Shown: positions 50-9,926 of the stretch, in pieces
How positions within the stretch are numbered: the first letter of the stretch is position 1
Layout of the letters: each line of letters begins with the position of its first letter
DNA from: a virus
Reading direction: 5' to 3' (one strand)
UHGV virus genome: UHGV-0104965
Length of the DNA: 16,371 bases
The notes under the pieces: generated by a model
Seen by the model: the letters and a program-made list of their open reading frames with translations, nothing else
Told to the model about the DNA's origin: nothing
The model's database searches: none
Position numbers and translations under genes: made by a program

Positions 50-391
50 TTATTTTGATTTGTACTGCTGTATTAGTTTTTCTTTTTTCTCACGATAGTC
101 TTTAGCCTCTGAAATAATCTGATTAGCAGTTTTACCATTCAGAATAACTAAACGCATTTTATCGGGAGAGTAATTTTTATCACCATTAATCATGGCTTCT
201 GTATTGTAGTAACTGAGAGTATCTGAAATTGCTGTTAGCAATTCCTGTTTTTGCTCCGGGGAAAGCGGCTCAATGACCTTCTCACCTGAATAACGCAATG
301 ACTCTTGATTTGCACCATCAAATTTAGGTGCATTATCACAACCTGCCAAGAGCAACGTTAAAGCCAGACTAAATATATAAATAACTCTCAT
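50..391 (-). CDS. Putative secreted lipoprotein (moron), function unknown
   Basis: ATG at 391 with GAGGT Shine-Dalgarno about 6 nt upstream; N-terminal signal peptide with lipobox LLAGC; region 1-520 is markedly AT-rich compared with neighbouring phage genes; own terminator. No family recognised by eye. Confidence 0.8.
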   Translation of the reverse strand: MRVIYIFSLALTLLLAGCDNAPKFDGANQESLRYSGEKVIEPLSPEQKQELLTAISDTLSYYNTEAMINGDKNYSPDKMRLVILNGKTANQIISEAKDYREKKEKLIQQYKSK

Positions 392-2141: not shown

Positions 2142-3194
2142 TTATTCCCCTGCCAGCTGCCTTACCTCACTTACCGTCTGGTTGAAACGTTCCTCTTCCA
2201 GTTCTACGCCGATAGCCTGGCGGCCCAGTTCAATGGCTGCTTTAACAGTTGATCCCGAGCCCATAAAGAAATCAGCTACCACATCGCCGGGCCTGCTGCT
2301 GGCGTTGATGATTTGCCGCAACATATCAGCGGGCTTTTCGCACGGGTGTTTGCCTGGATAGAACTGGACTGGTTTATGGGTCCATACGTCCGTATATGGC
2401 ACGGCAGCTGTCACAGAGAAATGCCGCCGAAGTGATTTGTACTCTTCGAGCAGCTCTGAATATTTGCGATTCAACGAATGCCACAGAGCCACCAGCTGGT
2501 GGTGTGGTGTTGCCAGTTCGCCGTTCTGGTGCTTTTCGATGGCTACCTGCGTGAAAAGGGACTGAAGTTTCCGGTAGTCTGATTCATTCGGTAATTGCCA
2601 CTGGCTACCGCTGAACCAGTGAGACACCATGTTCTTCTTTCCAGTCGCATCGGCTATTTGTTTTGAGGATATGCCAAGCGCTTCACGTGCATCCCGGAAA
2701 TAAGATATTAGGGGAGTCATTACATGCTGCTTCAGCTCGCTTCCCTTCTCAGCGTACCCGTCGCTCTTTGGTTTATACGGCCCCTGGTAATGCTCAGCGA
2801 ACAGGATGCGTTCTGTTGCAGGGAAGTAAGAGCGCAGGCTCTCTTTATTACAGCCATTCCAGCGGCCCGACGGTTTAGCCCAGATGATGTGGTTCAGGAT
2901 GTTGAACCGCTCACGCATCATGATCTCAATGTCTGCCGCCAGGCGGTGACCGGAGAAAAGATAAAGACTGCCAGCAGGTTTAAGCACTCGCCAGAATTGT
3001 GCGAGGCACATATCAAGCCAGCGAAGATAATCCTCATCCCCTTTCCATTGATTGTCCCAGCCGTTGGGTTTCACTTTGAAGTACGGCGGATCCGTAACAA
3101 TAAGGTCAATGGTGTTATCTGGGAGGGTTGCGAGGTATAGCAGGCAGTCAGCGTTGACAAGCTCAACACTGTTTATATTTACAGTATTTTTCAT
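2142..3194 (-). CDS. DNA methyltransferase, beta-class (N6-adenine or N4-cytosine), orphan phage enzyme
   Basis: Motif IV TDPPY near the N-terminus and SAM-binding motif I FFMGSGST near the C-terminus (beta-class order: IV then I). 350 aa, no adjacent restriction endonuclease gene. Confidence 0.9.
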   Translation of the reverse strand: MKNTVNINSVELVNADCLLYLATLPDNTIDLIVTDPPYFKVKPNGWDNQWKGDEDYLRWLDMCLAQFWRVLKPAGSLYLFSGHRLAADIEIMMRERFNILNHIIWAKPSGRWNGCNKESLRSYFPATERILFAEHYQGPYKPKSDGYAEKGSELKQHVMTPLISYFRDAREALGISSKQIADATGKKNMVSHWFSGSQWQLPNESDYRKLQSLFTQVAIEKHQNGELATPHHQLVALWHSLNRKYSELLEEYKSLRRHFSVTAAVPYTDVWTHKPVQFYPGKHPCEKPADMLRQIINASSRPGDVVADFFMGSGSTVKAAIELGRQAIGVELEEERFNQTVSEVRQLAGE

Positions 3195-3392
3195 AGATCC
3201 GTAAGCGTAACTCTGATAGGCTCACTATGCTTTTGCGCTAAAGCAGTGGGCCTTGGTTAGCTTGTGACCTGAAAGCATGAGCTGATGGCTGGCCGGGTGC
3301 TACAACACCCTCCAGCCGCCCATTTCTCAAGCGAAAATGCCTCCAGATAGGAGGAGCGTAGATTAGATAACTGGCTTTAATTTTCTGTCGAC

Positions 3393-3425
3393 GAAAAAAA
3401 ACCCGCTATTAAGCGGGTTTTTTCC
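3393..3425. terminator. Strong bidirectional rho-independent terminator ending the AT-rich moron
   Basis: ACCCGCU(3401-3407)-auua-AGCGGGU(3412-3418), 7-bp stem, flanked by an A8 run upstream and T-run downstream; directly follows the stop of the 53-aa CDS on the minus strand. Confidence 0.75.
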
Positions 3426-3445
3426 TATTTTTTAAGCGGCAAGAT

Positions 3446-3607
3446 TCATGCGGCTTCTCTAACACGACGGCGACCTTGACGCTCTTGAGAAGGTGCCTGT
3501 GCATTCTCTTCAAGAGCTGGACCAACCTTCATAAGAAAGTCCAGAGCTTCGCCAGCTTTTCTGTAAGTTTGGATAGTATCAAACAAGCGTTCTTTTTTCA
3601 TTTCCAT
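3446..3607 (-). CDS. Small hypothetical protein (53 aa), unlisted in the ORF track
   Basis: Hand translation: MEMKKERLFDTIQTYRKAGEALDFLMKVGPALEENAQAPSQERQGRRRVREAA. ATG at 3607 preceded by GAGGTG SD; stop TGA at 3446-3448 followed by the strong terminator. Basic C-terminal tail. Function unknown. Confidence 0.55.
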   Translation of the reverse strand: MEMKKERLFDTIQTYRKAGEALDFLMKVGPALEENAQAPSQERQGRRRVREAA

Positions 3608-3855
3608 ACATCACCTCTTCGGAAGCATTGTTCCAGAGTGAACATGCATTTCGTGTAACAACATGCGTGCTGAAGTTCACATGTTCATGTTACTACTACA
3701 TGCAAGAAGCATCTCGATACTTGAGCCACTCATTGCCATAGCTTTGAGCGATTGACATAGATGGTAGCTGCCATCTAGTTCTTCGGTATCTAGTGCTTAA
3801 ACTTGAGTACACTATAACACAATTACAATGTACCCGCTAACTTATGGGATGATGA

Positions 3856-4401
3856 TTAAGCATCTCTTTCAGCCATGTATCTCATCAGCCTATCAAGACT
3901 ACAAGTCATAACATAAGAGCAACTATCTGACATTTCAAACCCAAAGGTCCGATAGTAATCAATCTTTTCTTCCACTGGTTCAATGATACGAACCTCAGTA
4001 CCATCAACTTGCTTCATGAAGATAACGGCGGCGTATAATGTATACAAAATCATCTTACGACGCAATGGATGATCTTCACTATCCTTCACGAAGTTCTCAA
4101 CTGCATGTATATCAAACCTACTGCTACCGTGATGGTAGGTGCACAATGCCACACCCGCTGGGTAATCATCAACAAGTTTATGCTCTTTAGAAGTTATTAG
4201 TTTAATACATAAACTGAAACAATCCGGGTCATTACCTACTGAGGTTACATAGTATTCCCAGTTAAGTTCACCATAAGCTCTTATGAGGGAACTAGTATCA
4301 TTAAAAGAAAGCGGACCGACTGCTAGATCTATCTCACGATGATCCATGTATGCCTGGAGGGTGTTATAGGTTTGTTGAGCTACTTCTTCCAGAGAAAGCA
4401 T
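3856..4401 (-). CDS. Hypothetical protein in AT-rich moron (about 181 aa), possible GNAT-like fold
   Basis: ORF 3856..4413 uses a TTG; first ATG is at 4401 (MLSLEEV...). No clear SD. Low GC versus flanks. C-terminal segment ...RRKMILYTLYAAVIFMKQVDGTEVRIIEP...IDYYRTFGFE loosely resembles the acetyltransferase core and Y-x-x-x-G-F motif; weak, eye-only. Confidence 0.7.
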   Translation of the reverse strand: MLSLEEVAQQTYNTLQAYMDHREIDLAVGPLSFNDTSSLIRAYGELNWEYYVTSVGNDPDCFSLCIKLITSKEHKLVDDYPAGVALCTYHHGSSRFDIHAVENFVKDSEDHPLRRKMILYTLYAAVIFMKQVDGTEVRIIEPVEEKIDYYRTFGFEMSDSCSYVMTCSLDRLMRYMAERDA

Positions 4402-4500
4402 AATGTAGGCCAAAACAGGAGTTTAAGGGTTGAAAAAGAATACCATTAACAAATGTTAAAAACACTGAAGGATGGGATGTTTTTTCAGATTACTCCCAAG

Positions 4501-4522
4501 AAAAAACCCGCTCACTGGCGGG
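4501..4522 (-). terminator. Intrinsic terminator immediately downstream of the Q-like gene (tR'-like)
   Basis: On minus strand CCCGC-cagtga-GCGGG followed by UUUUUU (complement of 4501-4506). About 50 nt downstream of the candidate late promoter. Confidence 0.7.
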
Positions 4523-4558
4523 CTGATATACTTTTAGCAACATATCAAATTAGCTTCA

Positions 4559-4587
4559 AATATCGCTTATTTTGTTGCATTTTGCAA
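4559..4587 (-). promoter_or_regulatory. Candidate late promoter pR' (sigma70-like)
   Basis: On minus strand TTGCAA (-35; plus 4582-4587), 17-bp spacer, GATATT (-10; plus 4559-4564), placed between the Q-like gene stop and the tR'-like terminator. Hexamers are imperfect; positional argument is the main support. Confidence 0.3.
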
Positions 4588-4617
4588 GCTTAATTGAGGG
4601 AGTTAGTGAAAGTTACA

Positions 4618-5331
4618 TCACATTTCCGCCACTTTCAGTTCTTGGTACTCTTCGTACCGTGACAAAATTTCGCTTAGTGCCTGGCTGTCCATCTCAGTAA
4701 ACGACGCTTTGAAAGCCGCCCAGTGGCATGAATACACTCTGAGCCAGGTGGAACGCTCAACGCTGACCATGCGCGCCAGCGCTGCACCAGCATACTCCTG
4801 ATAGGTATCGTTATTACGCGAGGCAGCAACTTCTTGCGCCGCCAGCCAGACAAGCCCTATCAGTTTTTTAGTGACACGGTCCTGGATTTTTTTGCCGCTA
4901 TGCTGACGCTGAAACTCTTCCCATACGAACTGGCACATTAACCTCTGGTACCGGAAAGCAAGGTCATGCCCATAGCAGTACCGCACCCATGCCTGCAAAT
5001 GCTCCCCAAGACCATTGACCGAACGACGCCATGCTGAACAAGCGAACTCCGCATCCTTAATAGGCGGTAAAGGTCTGCGACGGCTCCTTGTCTCAAGAAC
5101 ATAAAGTGGAGTGGCCATCGTTTTTACAACCTTGGATCCACAACCTTCCCCACCCTCCATGACGATTTCAGGATGGTGCCGGGGGTATTTGTTCTTATCT
5201 GCTGGTGGATGCTCACTGAACGCCTGCAGCTGTCCTTTTGTCGATCCTGATAAATCCGCCAGCGCGCGGCGCAGTTCAATCCGCGTATATTCCAGTTCTT
5301 GTAAATTCATTATGCTCAGCGCTCCATACAA
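4618..5331 (-). CDS. Putative late-gene antitermination protein Q (QuuQ/YdfT-like)
   Basis: 237-aa ORF directly downstream of the YdfU-like gene and upstream of a promoter-plus-terminator pair and the lysis cassette, the canonical Q position; this gene order and size match my recollection of ydfU-quuQ in E. coli Qin. No Cys4 zinc finger seen, so not lambda-Q type. Start may be the internal ATG at 5310 (MNLQELEY). Confidence 0.6.
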   Translation of the reverse strand: MYGALSIMNLQELEYTRIELRRALADLSGSTKGQLQAFSEHPPADKNKYPRHHPEIVMEGGEGCGSKVVKTMATPLYVLETRSRRRPLPPIKDAEFACSAWRRSVNGLGEHLQAWVRYCYGHDLAFRYQRLMCQFVWEEFQRQHSGKKIQDRVTKKLIGLVWLAAQEVAASRNNDTYQEYAGAALARMVSVERSTWLRVYSCHWAAFKASFTEMDSQALSEILSRYEEYQELKVAEM

Positions 5332-7096: not shown

Positions 7097-9034
7097 TCAG
7101 GCGGCTGCACCCGCCTTTTGATTTGCACATAATTCAGGAAGATTTGCTTCTACCAGCGCACGAGCGAACGGCGGCGGTACTGCGTTACCGCAGCGCGCTA
7201 CCTGCTTGTCTTTGGCGTAACGATTGCCGCGATAGTCCTGATCGATAACGTAGCCGTCAGGGAAGCCCTGCGCCTTATAAAGCTCATGCGGTTGCAGCAT
7301 GCGCATTCCGATATCGACGATCTGGTACTTAACCCCCTCGATCGTCACCAGCCATTCATCCTCGCTATCACCGCAGTAGGTTTCGAGGAATGTCCGGACC
7401 TCGCCAACGTGCTGGCCACCAGCGGTAATCGTCGGCATAGGTGTATCCATGGTCTGACCGTCGCGGCAGGTTCCGCGCAGCTTCACCAAGTGCGACGCAA
7501 CTACCGCGTGATGATCAACAGTAGTGACAGAGTGGGCAGGCTCATCCATACCAACACCCGGCCCCGTGTAATTCCCACCATAGTGCTTTGCCAGGAACGC
7601 GCTCACCGTTGCAAACTTATTACCACCAGCAGTGACCGTGCCGAGCGGGTTATTCAGTTGAAGAACACGCGGTTCTTGCCCTAGGCGTTCGCCGTACCCC
7701 ATCTGGATCAGTGTTGGAGTTACCAGCTGCGACTTACCGCCACCACCTGCAGTAATCGTCGCGCTCGGTTCGTCAGCCCTGTGCCCAACACTAGCGCCAA
7801 ACTGGCGGGCGATGACCGGCGCAACCACGCACGCGCGGGACTGCCTGAGGATTGTATGAGCGGGTTTATCCAGCGGGCGCGGCTTTGCCTGGTACTCACT
7901 GCCGCCATTGCCAGCCAGGAACGGTGTCAGGGCGGCCTCAACTACGCCAAGCGCATGCCCATTCCCGCCCGGACGCGCCGACGTACCAGCGGTGACAGTT
8001 GGTACCGGCTCGGTCACTGGCTGCCCGGTGGCCCCGGTGCGGAATTTAGTAAGATGCGGTACCGCCAGCGCGTAGCCATGCTTTTTAGTGATGGTCTGCA
8101 ATGGCTCTAACAACGATTGCCCGCGGAAACAGTCATAACCTCCTTTCGTCGTGGTGTGGTTACACTTCACGATGAAAGGTGATGCGCTTTCGATAACAAA
8201 GCGCTGGATGCCGCGCGCGATACGTTTGAGCGTATTTTCCGCCAGCGGCTTTTTGCGGTCGAAGATGGAACGGGCCGGAATGTTCCAGTCAATGCACTCC
8301 GCCGCGGTACGCCATGGCGCCAGCTTGCCGCTTTGTACTTCCAGTGATTTTGGATCCCCATGAGTCGCTTCAGGCCAATGAATCTTGCGGCCGTCACAGC
8401 GCATGACCATGAAGAAACGCCTTCTGATCGTCGGCGCGCCGTAGTCACAAGCGCGCAGCTCACGATAATCGACCTCATAACCAAGCCCGGCGATCAGCTG
8501 TTGAGCCTGCTGGCCGTGCGGCTCAATGGCAAGAAATTCACAAACCTCAGCCAGTGCTGGGTGATTCGCCGCGATCCCCGTCGACAGCATGCCGACAAAT
8601 GCCTCGAATGTTTCACCAGCACGCTCAGGATCCGGGCGTAATTCTTCATCCAGCAGCGGGCCCCATGTCTTAAATTCTTCGACGTTCTCCAGCATCATGA
8701 CTCGGGGACGTACTGCCAGCGCCCAGCGCAGAACAATCCACGCCAGCCCGCGAATCTCTTTCTTAACTGGCTTAGCGCCCTTCGCTTTGGAAAAGTGGCG
8801 GCAGTCAGGGCTAAACCAGGCCAAGCCGACAGGTTTACCGCTGGTGGCTGCGCTTGGGTCAACGTCAAACACCGACTCGCAATAATGCAGCGTGTCAGGG
8901 TGATTCGTCTTATGCATCGCAATAGCGTTTTCGTCGTGGTTGATAGCGATATCCACGCTACGCCCGATCGCCACTTCAATGCCGGTACTCGCGCCGCCGC
9001 CACCAGCAAAGTTATCAACGATAATTTCACGCAT
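7097..9034 (-). CDS. DNA (cytosine-5)-methyltransferase with enlarged, four-module target-recognition region
   Basis: ORF 7097..9088 (GTG) trimmed to ATG at 9034 (MREIIVDNFAGGGGASTG, motif I). Motif IV region SPDCRHFS, motif VI ENV, motif VIII RRR, C-terminal motifs IX (QGFPDGY) and X (CGNAVPPP). Between VIII and IX are four degenerate repeats of P-x-x-T-[VI]-T-A-G-G ... [FT]-L. Confidence 0.9.
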   Translation of the reverse strand: MREIIVDNFAGGGGASTGIEVAIGRSVDIAINHDENAIAMHKTNHPDTLHYCESVFDVDPSAATSGKPVGLAWFSPDCRHFSKAKGAKPVKKEIRGLAWIVLRWALAVRPRVMMLENVEEFKTWGPLLDEELRPDPERAGETFEAFVGMLSTGIAANHPALAEVCEFLAIEPHGQQAQQLIAGLGYEVDYRELRACDYGAPTIRRRFFMVMRCDGRKIHWPEATHGDPKSLEVQSGKLAPWRTAAECIDWNIPARSIFDRKKPLAENTLKRIARGIQRFVIESASPFIVKCNHTTTKGGYDCFRGQSLLEPLQTITKKHGYALAVPHLTKFRTGATGQPVTEPVPTVTAGTSARPGGNGHALGVVEAALTPFLAGNGGSEYQAKPRPLDKPAHTILRQSRACVVAPVIARQFGASVGHRADEPSATITAGGGGKSQLVTPTLIQMGYGERLGQEPRVLQLNNPLGTVTAGGNKFATVSAFLAKHYGGNYTGPGVGMDEPAHSVTTVDHHAVVASHLVKLRGTCRDGQTMDTPMPTITAGGQHVGEVRTFLETYCGDSEDEWLVTIEGVKYQIVDIGMRMLQPHELYKAQGFPDGYVIDQDYRGNRYAKDKQVARCGNAVPPPFARALVEANLPELCANQKAGAAA

Positions 9035-9926
9035 TGACGGCCCCCTGCATGCTGTTGAAGAGACCACCAGCGGTCGTGATAATTTCACTCATCGGCATAC
9101 GTTCGAGCCACAGCTGGTTGATATTGGCTTTCAGCTTGTTCTGCTGTGAAACAGGTAGAGCGTCAGCCCCTTCAATCTGGTTAAACACCAGGCCAACCTC
9201 AAGAGGCCAGATGCGCGACTCTGCATCAGGCGTTGCAATGGGAGCAGGCATTACATTTTCCGGCACCGACGGAAGGGCCAATTTTGCCGCGGCGAATTGA
9301 GCCAATGACAATGCGGCACGCCCTTTTTCTTCCAGTTCGGTGCGATTGATATAGCTGAATCTTTCACCACGCCAGGTTTTGTCAAAGACAGCGATTGCCC
9401 CGGCAAAAAATGCGCTGGTGGGTTGCTGCTTCTCGTCAGCGGGAACAAACCAAACAGGAAGATCGAACCCAATACGACCACGAATAAACATGATGTGATC
9501 GGCATCCTCCGGCCACCATGTTTCACTTGTGGCTGACTTCACGAGGTATATGTAACGACCACCTTGATCACGCATCGCCATTGTGTGATTCATGATGTGG
9601 GTCATGCCAGTGATGGCCTGCTTTTCATGGTACTGAGAACGGCTATATGGCGGATTTGCAAACGCGGCGCCACCGAGTTCTGCCAGACGCTCTGACCAGT
9701 CCTGCGTCAGCGCGTTATCTTCGGCGGTATACCATGCAGGGCATTTAGCATTGCTATCGTCTGCAAACAGATCCAGAACCATCGGCCCAAATATCGAATT
9801 GATGCCCCAAAACAACAAATCCGGAGTGCGCCACTGATCGCCAACCTCTTTCAATTCATGCGCTGGCTTTGAGCGCAGTTCAGCCAGCGCGCGGCAATAT
9901 TTGTTATCAGCATTCATGCTCATCAT
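9027..9926 (-). CDS. Phage DNA N6-adenine methyltransferase (phage Dam family) with about 100-aa C-terminal extension
   Basis: WRTPDLLFWGINSIFGPMVLDLFADDSNAKC...AFANPPYS: the W-x-T-P ... D-x-x-A ... NPPY pattern of the phage Dam family. ATG overlaps stop of the O-like gene (ATGA at 9923-9926). Confidence 0.9.
   Translation of the reverse strand: MMSMNADNKYCRALAELRSKPAHELKEVGDQWRTPDLLFWGINSIFGPMVLDLFADDSNAKCPAWYTAEDNALTQDWSERLAELGGAAFANPPYSRSQYHEKQAITGMTHIMNHTMAMRDQGGRYIYLVKSATSETWWPEDADHIMFIRGRIGFDLPVWFVPADEKQQPTSAFFAGAIAVFDKTWRGERFSYINRTELEEKGRAALSLAQFAAAKLALPSVPENVMPAPIATPDAESRIWPLEVGLVFNQIEGADALPVSQQNKLKANINQLWLERMPMSEIITTAGGLFNSMQGAVNA

Follow-up and report, generated by a model that had tools for sequence, protein, structure and literature searches.

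The virus genome UHGV-0104965 carries, between its late antiterminator gene Q and a DNA methylase gene, an AT-rich island of ∼1.1 kb, which was analyzed here within the whole 16,371-nt stretch of this DNA (the window, to which all positions refer unless another locus is named). The insert lies on the minus strand directly after Q and the late promoter and terminator pR'/tR', and comprises, in this order, an extended −10 motif, a gene for a 181-amino-acid (aa) GNAT-fold protein, a structured RNA of ∼250 nt, a gene for a 53-aa helical protein and an intrinsic terminator. It is an autonomous, horizontally mobile, self-terminating cassette inserted immediately after tR'. The preliminary description of this DNA, made from its letters alone, had regarded the island as a two-gene unit. 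Both genes proved to be real, but the spacer between them is a conserved structured RNA, and the unit therefore has three parts rather than two.

The AT-rich island was recovered as a dip in GC content to 0.38-0.41 over ∼3600-4650, compared with ∼0.52 on either flank, and across all hosts examined the cassette has a GC content of ∼0.35-0.49. Its reported position between Q/pR'/tR' and a methylase with a DPPY motif, all on the minus strand, was likewise found to be correct. The left boundary of the insert is a pR'-type late promoter region with a short leader and tR' (4501..4615, minus strand), the tR' hairpin being located by a terminator scan at 4524..4505 plus a T-run. The right end is marked by an intrinsic, bidirectional-looking terminator, AAAAAACCCGCTTAATAGCGGGTTTTTTTT (3394..3423; stem 3396-3423 plus a T-run in the terminator scan), which is a near-copy of tR'. 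The dedicated terminator that had been ascribed to the island is thus present, but at 3396-3423 it lies just outside the start of 3440 assigned to the island before. An exact 12-nt direct repeat, AAAAAACCCGCT, brackets the insert at 3396-3407 and 4501-4512, 1105 bp apart. Its copies belong to the cassette terminator and to tR', and 23 nt at 87% are also common to both. This pair of repeats suggests that the cassette may have entered by recombination between terminator sequences.

The closest relative of the window is Escherichia phage Eeyore, with 99.2% identity across the island. The sister phage Flotzy has kept the end of Q, pR', tR' and the methylase leader and has no island; its tR' is ∼70 nt away from the methylase, and the homology between the window and Flotzy stops at the tR' T-run and picks up again only at ∼3355. 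Phage LLS carries an unrelated 192-aa gene between Q and the methylase, and this slot is therefore a hotspot for variable cargo. The LLS gene was ruled out as a homologue of the window cargo, since no homology was found; its product (L002, 3011-3645) belongs to phrog_18859, a group of unknown function, and a 29-codon open reading frame (ORF) lies in front of it. A DNA search detected the island in none of 5426 complete E. coli genomes, and within 3380-4620 only the pR' segment (4501-4615) has DNA matches in E. coli genomes and in Flotzy. A scan for tRNA and tmRNA genes found none.

The larger protein is encoded at 3856..4401 (minus strand). The longest version of its ORF (4413..3856) would yield 185 aa from a TTG start, but since all homologues begin with MLSLEE, the ATG at 4401 is the likely start. 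No match was found for it in Pfam, NCBIfam or PADLOC, and a sequence search of the PDB returned nothing meaningful; among 36 family members, one touches the curated GNAT model Acetyltransf_1 (E = 0.0058). The family is small, with 18 clusters in a word-indexed search of 5.8 × 10^9 proteins and 64 clusters at E ≤ 1e-3 in an exhaustive profile search of 1.84 × 10^9 representatives. An AlphaFold (AF2) model based on 17 homologues was confident (pLDDT 81, pTM 0.80) and shows the GNAT element order β1-α1-α2-β2-β3-β4-α3-β5-α4-β6. Foldseek matches include the toxins TacT3, KacT and AtaT; NatD, Naa50, RimI and a lasso-peptide acetyltransferase score equally well, and aminoglycoside, streptothricin and polyamine acetyltransferases are also among the structural neighbours. 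Judged by the model, the GNAT fold is secure and the subfamily is not. The weak acetyltransferase-like C-terminal motif mentioned in the preliminary description was hence a valid resemblance, but an understated one, as the model gives a full GNAT fold.

Residues W48 and Y150 are shared by the entire wider family and E102 and F155 by nearly all of it, and a conserved YYxxFGF block aligns with …FYERFGF of solved GNATs (best E = 0.0057 in the comparison of the profile with the PDB). Motif A (Q/RxxGxG/A, coenzyme A (CoA) pyrophosphate) is replaced at β4–α3 by HPLRRKM, which is invariant in the clade of the window protein; the wider family has HPLxG(R/K)M at this position. The PHROGs database places the large protein in phrog_4350 and the small one in phrog_2741, both of unknown function. 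Homology to a housekeeping or structural phage protein, which had been named as one of the results that would speak against a moron, was accordingly not found. The profile searches and structure predictions proposed at the same time gave no match in Pfam, NCBIfam or PADLOC for either protein and yielded a GNAT fold for the large and a helical structure for the small one.

The 53-aa protein is encoded at 3446..3607 (minus strand) behind the Shine–Dalgarno (SD) sequence AGAGGTG. It had been put forward as an unlisted gene with a strong SD, and the variability of its codon positions shows that it is a real coding gene: among 21 homologues, the variable columns are distributed 23/20/51 over the three positions. 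Synonymous exceeded non-synonymous codon differences in every pair tested, indicating purifying selection. The protein is 74-100% identical across 10 clusters, with the conserved sequence …FDTIQTYKKAGEALDFLMKVGPxLEExAQAPSQE(K/R)QGRRRx(K/R)(E/Q)AA, and its basic C-terminal tail ends in …QGRRRVREAA. The AF2 model (pLDDT 78) consists of a long helix (2-37) and a second helix (41-52); the protein is hydrophilic and not membrane-like. It has no match in Pfam, NCBIfam or PADLOC and was found only in PHROGs. The C-terminal AA or KA is kept in four divergent lineages of the small protein and is seen in partners of GNAT homologues with only 28-42% identity. A C-terminal Ala-Ala is a recognition determinant for ClpXP, as in the ssrA tag, and by this analogy the tail of the small protein looks like a degradation tag. 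At locus L033, a second, diverged copy of the small ORF (3642-3803, …NKKTI, with its own SD) follows the terminator of the cassette located downstream of Q.

The 248-nt spacer between the two genes (3855..3608, minus strand) contains a structured RNA of ∼200 nt (3608..3804, minus strand), which forms the leader of the small ORF and was delineated by RNAalifold and covariation in an alignment of nine diverse enterobacterial spacers. RNAalifold predicted 48 pairs, 25 of them with compensatory changes. The covariation test covered seven leader helices with 36 pairs and used as controls the same helices with one partner slid by 1-3 columns, together with 500 shuffles. Standard pairs filled 92.9% of the cells as opposed to 27-45% after sliding, 20 pairs were changed on both sides (4-8 after sliding), as were 61 cells (5-11 after sliding), and the covariation score was 0.549 compared with at most 0.125. 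On four of the five measures the observed values were attained by none of the 500 shuffles, and on the fifth, further pair types, by 13 of them.

The first domain of this RNA is multibranched and includes the hairpin AGATGG-CAGCTA-CCATCT at 3776..3759, which the preliminary description had pointed out and which turned out to be the best-supported helix of the leader. Its CAGCUA loop is near-invariant, while the stem varies (AGATGG, GGATGG, GGTTAG, GATTAG, GCTTGG, TCTAGG, ACTTGG, GTAGACAG and GTAGAGGG). The second domain contains GUGAAC…GCACGCAUG at 3680..3662 and is followed by a module of anti-SD, GGAA-UUCC hairpin and SD at 3640..3612. The ACATG repeats reported for the spacer are also real, with six of the 25 matches in the window (both strands) falling within 3642-3702, inside conserved helices of the second domain. 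Since the entire window shows no excess of ACATG (25 matches against 37 expected), this cluster is a local feature. Tandem repeats were not found in 3380-4620, and the spacer thus does not show the repeat RNA of type III toxin–antitoxin (TA) systems.

These helices contain 28 G·U pairs as against 6 A·C mismatches, which identifies the gene-sense strand as the folding one. The strand assignment rests on these counts, since folding energy is uninformative. The antisense of the leader (3602-3805, plus strand) folds better than shuffled controls (z = −2.78); an antisense transcript of the leader may exist, though covariation favours the sense strand. Just 5' of the SD, the invariant GGAA/UUCC hairpin is flanked by an anti-SD (CACUCU in the window), which pairs with AGAGGUG in the predicted minimum-energy folds of the window and of L024, L005 and L012. 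The SD of L010 and L033 is likewise paired, though with different partners, and the picture is less consistent in some further cassettes. In its details the RNA is confined to one clade: the spacers of Serratia, Photorhabdus, phage mEp460 and remote members measure 81-284 nt and share only the motifs beside the GNAT stop codon and the SD.

Rfam 15 gave no match at the gathering threshold in the window, and a scan by E-value returned sub-threshold matches driven by the terminators and, where the spacer borders the GNAT gene, a few weak ones at chance level (E ≥ 2.9). As Rfam has no match, this RNA would represent a new family. The spacer was also compared with sRNA-17, a small RNA (sRNA) of 193 nt from an mEp460-like prophage of E. 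coli K1 (PMC7719688). Identity with sRNA-17 was ruled out: the published primer and sRNA sequences are missing from all fetched loci, and sRNA-17 is therefore a different element.

Two promoter-like motifs were identified in the cassette. The first, P1, is a candidate extended −10 element, TGGTATTCT (4437..4445, minus strand), ∼35 nt upstream of the GNAT start codon, and TGnTAnnnT occurs at this position in all 10 aligned enterobacterial cassettes, behind a phage tR' as well as behind a chromosomal gene. The second, TGTTATAGT (3819..3811), lies directly 3' of the GNAT stop codon and is kept there in enterobacterial, Serratia and Photorhabdus cassettes. It is enclosed by an inverted repeat, GGGTACA…TGTACTC (3835..3829 and 3811..3805, minus strand), whose arms are 95% paired with five of seven pairs compensatory. 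Pairing is 95% on the sense strand versus 79% on the antisense strand, and the 10 G·U cells as against no A·C cells favour a sense RNA. Because the enclosing inverted repeat covaries, TGTTATAGT could form a hairpin loop within a bicistronic mRNA, serve as an internal promoter (P2), or do both. A σ70 −35/−10 consensus scan, which requires a −35 element, reported neither motif, and promoter-like matches in the region do not exceed the shuffled expectation. Judging from the conserved motifs, the cassette probably has its own promoter. At the other end, the homologous cassettes are closed by a terminator of the CCCGC…GCGGGTTTTT type, which follows the small ORF at a distance of 20-45 nt.

In all 26 loci collected first and in six later ones, both genes lie on one strand, the GNAT gene ahead of the small gene, and no intact GNAT gene lacking the small ORF was found among the loci examined. 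Three unrelated Q families precede the cassette, namely PF06323 in the window, PF03589 in L005, L012 and L033, and PF06530 in L006, L007, L031 and L034; these loci are Escherichia, Klebsiella and Serratia-type prophages as well as unassigned phage contigs from metagenomes and the Sequence Read Archive (SRA). The cassette of phage mEp460 lies in the int–xis gap, and cassettes of this type are present in 562 of 5426 complete E. coli genomes (∼10%), many O157:H7 strains included. Chromosomal copies were found after sspA-sspB in an unidentified bacterium, beside dusA in Erwinia and, in nine Photorhabdus species representatives, between a LysR-family regulator gene and rpiA. The Photorhabdus copy looks like a vertically inherited, domesticated one. 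Among the Photorhabdus loci (L008, L009, L016-L023), neighbours are listed for L008 and L009, and no prophage genes are near these two; the Photorhabdus spacers are shorter, at 109-222 nt. Just downstream of the cassette that follows sspB lies a C-terminal fragment resembling TnpB/Cas12f (L032, 4354-4815). Three distant GNAT homologues (28-29% identity) are found on an Enterobacter kobei plasmid, on a metagenome contig and next to an integrase. All three have a 50-60-aa ORF downstream, and the E. kobei copy, the one whose downstream DNA was read, is followed by a terminator-like hairpin.

These observations agree with the moron proposed in the preliminary description: the site is empty in Flotzy and holds other cargo in LLS, the GC content is deviant, a terminator and promoter-like motifs are present, and the cassette recurs in quite different contexts elsewhere. 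The cassette thus resembles lambdoid morons in its position after pR'/tR', its deviant GC content, its presence or absence in collinear phages, its own terminator and its putative promoter. Unlike the cargo between Q and the lysis genes in such phages, for example stx, it contains no known virulence or exclusion gene, occurs outside phages as well and includes a structured RNA.

The homologous cassette of mEp460, gp23–gp24, is annotated as hypothetical too. Its gp23 is 42% identical to the GNAT-fold protein and gp24 38% to the small protein; gp24 ends in …RRRKAA, the spacer measures 196 nt and a terminator is present. It differs from the window cassette in its int–xis site and in a spacer that cannot be aligned with the window RNA.

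Loss of the GNAT gene with retention of the small gene was observed in two settings. In E. amylovora, two frameshifts have turned the GNAT gene into a pseudogene, but the leader RNA has been preserved together with an intact 53-aa ORF. In strain ATCC 49946 (L037, 2431-3390) the pseudogene extends across three reading frames, and directly next to the locus lie the remains of a prophage (PyocinActivator-type xis, DUF968, Q). In E. coli, ∼200 records (∼36%) match only in the last 240 nt, that is, in the SD, the small ORF and the terminator. Two such records were inspected, and in these a SocA/Panacea-domain gene (PF13274, 2e-19) and a 128-aa gene replace the GNAT gene and the spacer. Both records (L035, 1983-3184; L036, 1986-3187) are E. 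coli chromosomes with dusA-integrated prophages. The 128-aa gene belongs to phrog_19071, the small ORF and terminator lie 40 nt downstream of the gene pair, and the breakpoint of the exchange is exactly at the SD of the small ORF. These PanAT modules thus fill the place of GNAT and spacer upstream of an mEp460-type small ORF, but they have no relation in sequence or fold to the window proteins, and none occurs in the window. Panacea has been documented as an antitoxin domain with many toxin partners (PMC8832971), and the replacement marks the slot as a site for TA or defence-type cargo. The asymmetric loss is what would be expected if danger came from the GNAT-fold protein and the small protein served for protection or regulation.

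A virulence, toxin or defence role had been offered as frequent for cargo at this position. Any such role for the cassette is a guess, with the evidence leaning to a TA or exclusion-type function. The reading that we favour, tentatively and as somewhat short of an even chance, is that of an exclusion or addiction module resembling a GNAT toxin with a minimal antitoxin, in which the antitoxin is regulated through an RNA leader. By comparison with TacT, AtaT and KacT, toxins that acetylate tRNA, the GNAT-fold enzyme would be the potentially harmful effector, and it would be neutralised by the small protein, a minimal counterpart of TacA or AtaR that corresponds to their toxin-binding helix and has no DNA-binding domain. 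The Ala-Ala C-terminus would make the small protein protease-labile, and the structured leader would hide the ribosome-binding site and so set the amount of small protein post-transcriptionally, rather than through operator binding. Transcription in a lysogen would start at the promoter or promoters of the cassette and be stopped by its terminator before the methylase and lysis genes; in the lytic phase, polymerase modified by Q would ignore this terminator and transcribe the unit from end to end. If the supply of small protein were perturbed, by infection with another phage or loss of the element, the GNAT-fold protein would be freed and the cell arrested. The pairing of the two proteins is supported by the finding that every examined locus with an intact GNAT homologue, even at 28% identity, carries a 50-60-aa ORF downstream.

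Several observations weigh against this reading. The replacement of the CoA-pyrophosphate motif by HPLRRKM means that the large protein may not use acetyl-CoA at all. The gene order, the 248-nt spacer and the absent RHH or HTH domain are unlike every characterised GNAT TA pair, and no family in PADLOC-DB v2 matches either protein even at E ≤ 10. The presence of the small ORF beside other cargo in E. coli could mean that it is functionally independent of the GNAT gene, and the stable vertical retention of the cassette at one chromosomal site in Photorhabdus would fit an ordinary cellular function as well. Finally, single-sequence folding of the sense-strand leader was unremarkable (z = −1.08).

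The comparison with GNAT/RHH systems (TacAT, AtaRT, KacAT and ItaRT) shows how far the cassette departs from them. There, the antitoxin gene lies upstream, adjacent to or overlapping the toxin gene, whereas the partner gene in the window lies downstream and 248 nt away. Their antitoxins carry an RHH/DUF1778 DNA-binding domain, whereas the small protein has no Pfam domain. HPLRRKM stands in place of the Q/RxxGxG/A of their toxins, and sequence identity to these is ∼10%. As gene order, RHH domain, adjacency and motif A all fail to agree, the cassette should not be filed as a member of this group.

A more far-reaching variant, which appears rather unlikely to us, would make the RNA an integral part of an undescribed three-component system, for example as a sensor or decoy through which the condition of the cell, be it phage infection, RNase status or translation status, would govern the release of a non-canonical GNAT-fold effector from a minimal, protease-labile protein inhibitor. 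If true, this would be a new TA or abortive-infection class dispersed among lambdoid late operons, int–xis gaps and bacterial chromosomes.

The best of the rival explanations, though itself rather improbable, is that the two proteins are an enzyme and its substrate or cofactor. The GNAT-fold protein would acylate the small protein, for instance at the conserved Lys pair 16/17 or the N-terminus, or use it as a targeting subunit, and the modified pair would act on host or phage in late infection, as a host-takeover or lysogenic-conversion factor. Such a relation would suit the strict and ancient pairing of co-evolving genes, the location of the cassette directly within the Q-dependent late transcript and the finding that peptide- and protein-modifying GNATs score as well as toxins in the structural search. 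It would also suit the better conservation of the small protein (72-77% versus 58-61% for the enzyme between the window and Serratia/Photorhabdus). However, the small ORF has stayed intact after inactivation or replacement of the enzyme gene, an unusual fate for a dedicated substrate; it is this retention that argues most strongly against a substrate and likewise against an exchange of roles between the two proteins. The cassette is moreover found at non-phage chromosomal sites, so that a role specific to late infection cannot be general.

Less likely still is that the RNA is the main product, as a trans-acting or dual-function sRNA of ∼200 nt or a riboswitch-like sensor, with the ORFs being accessory or independent. 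The compensatory changes in 20 of the 36 pairs, the near-invariant hairpin loop and the −10-like motif directly upstream of the RNA would be in line with this, as would the E. amylovora locus, where RNA and small ORF are kept as the GNAT gene decays. Yet the RNA is limited to one enterobacterial clade while both proteins are universal, the Panacea variants of E. coli retain the small ORF and lose the spacer, and no terminator separates the RNA from the small ORF.

A conventional small-molecule acetyltransferase, acting on an antibiotic or metabolite as the product of a lysogenic-conversion gene with an unrelated small ORF next to it, is very improbable. The GNAT fold with aminoglycoside, streptothricin and polyamine acetyltransferases as structural neighbours speaks for such an enzyme, but no sequence match to AAC, SpeG or Pfam GNAT models exceeds the threshold, motif A is degenerate, the cassette is rare and barely found on plasmids, and the obligatory small partner and the RNA would be left unexplained.

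Long structured 5' leaders that sequester the SD are typical of type I toxin mRNAs, and acetyltransferases can confer immunity against peptide toxins, as MccE does against microcin C. With hok and tisB, the cassette shares a long leader predicted to occlude the SD of an ORF of 50-60 codons, but the small basic protein is hydrophilic and helical rather than membrane-like, no antisense RNA signal was identified, and the small ORF is tolerated in E. amylovora and E. coli without an intact GNAT gene, where a toxin should be lethal or counter-selected, which leaves reversed roles, with the small protein as a type I-like toxin silenced by its leader and the GNAT-fold protein as a detoxifying immunity enzyme, as the least likely explanation of all.

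Outside the cassette, the minus strand carries Q, pR'/tR' and the island followed by the N6_N4 DNA methylase (3194..2142, with DPPY), a P21-type holin, a lysozyme and a spanin-region ORF. Q itself (5331..4618, minus strand; Pfam Phage_antiter_Q, 2.5e-40; phrog_304, 1.2e-71) probably starts at an ATG, which gives 4618..5310 (minus strand). The annotation of Eeyore likewise names this gene as Q. The window contains two DNA methyltransferases. The N6/N4 enzyme just after the cassette (2142-3194) has an embedded HTH_3-like segment, and the second, of 663 aa (7097-9088), is annotated as a DNA methyltransferase in Eeyore and lies upstream of the Ant/DUF968/Q block. A second AT-rich patch (GC 0.36 over 1-450) is located downstream of the spanin-region ORF. 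It contains at 50-391 (minus strand) a gene for a 113-aa lipoprotein-like protein, MRVIYIFSLALTLLLAGC…, with a match to Pfam DUF6694 (1.5e-10). As the match to Eeyore starts at 1320 and this end of the window is not shared, the patch may be another moron-like cargo.

Literature searches by phage names, protein accessions and GNAT, prophage and Q terms retrieved nothing on this protein family, and no description of either protein family or of the RNA exists in Pfam, NCBIfam, PADLOC, Rfam, the annotations of PHROGs or the literature that can be searched. Morons as a concept and toxins of the GNAT type are already known; what is new is a variant with an unusual RNA component. The sister cassette is present in ∼10% of complete E. 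coli genomes, yet both of its proteins are annotated as hypothetical only and the RNA is in no database. Even if its function should prove mundane, the covariation-supported RNA is a candidate for a new cis-regulatory family. The unit is small (1.1 kb), self-contained and present in the cultivable E. coli phages Eeyore and mEp460, and can thus be tested directly. If the cassette is indeed a GNAT-based TA or exclusion module, it would extend this class to a minimal antitoxin that has no DNA-binding domain and is controlled at the RNA level, and the hotspots that temperate phages have at Q–lysis and int–xis would gain a defined type of cargo.

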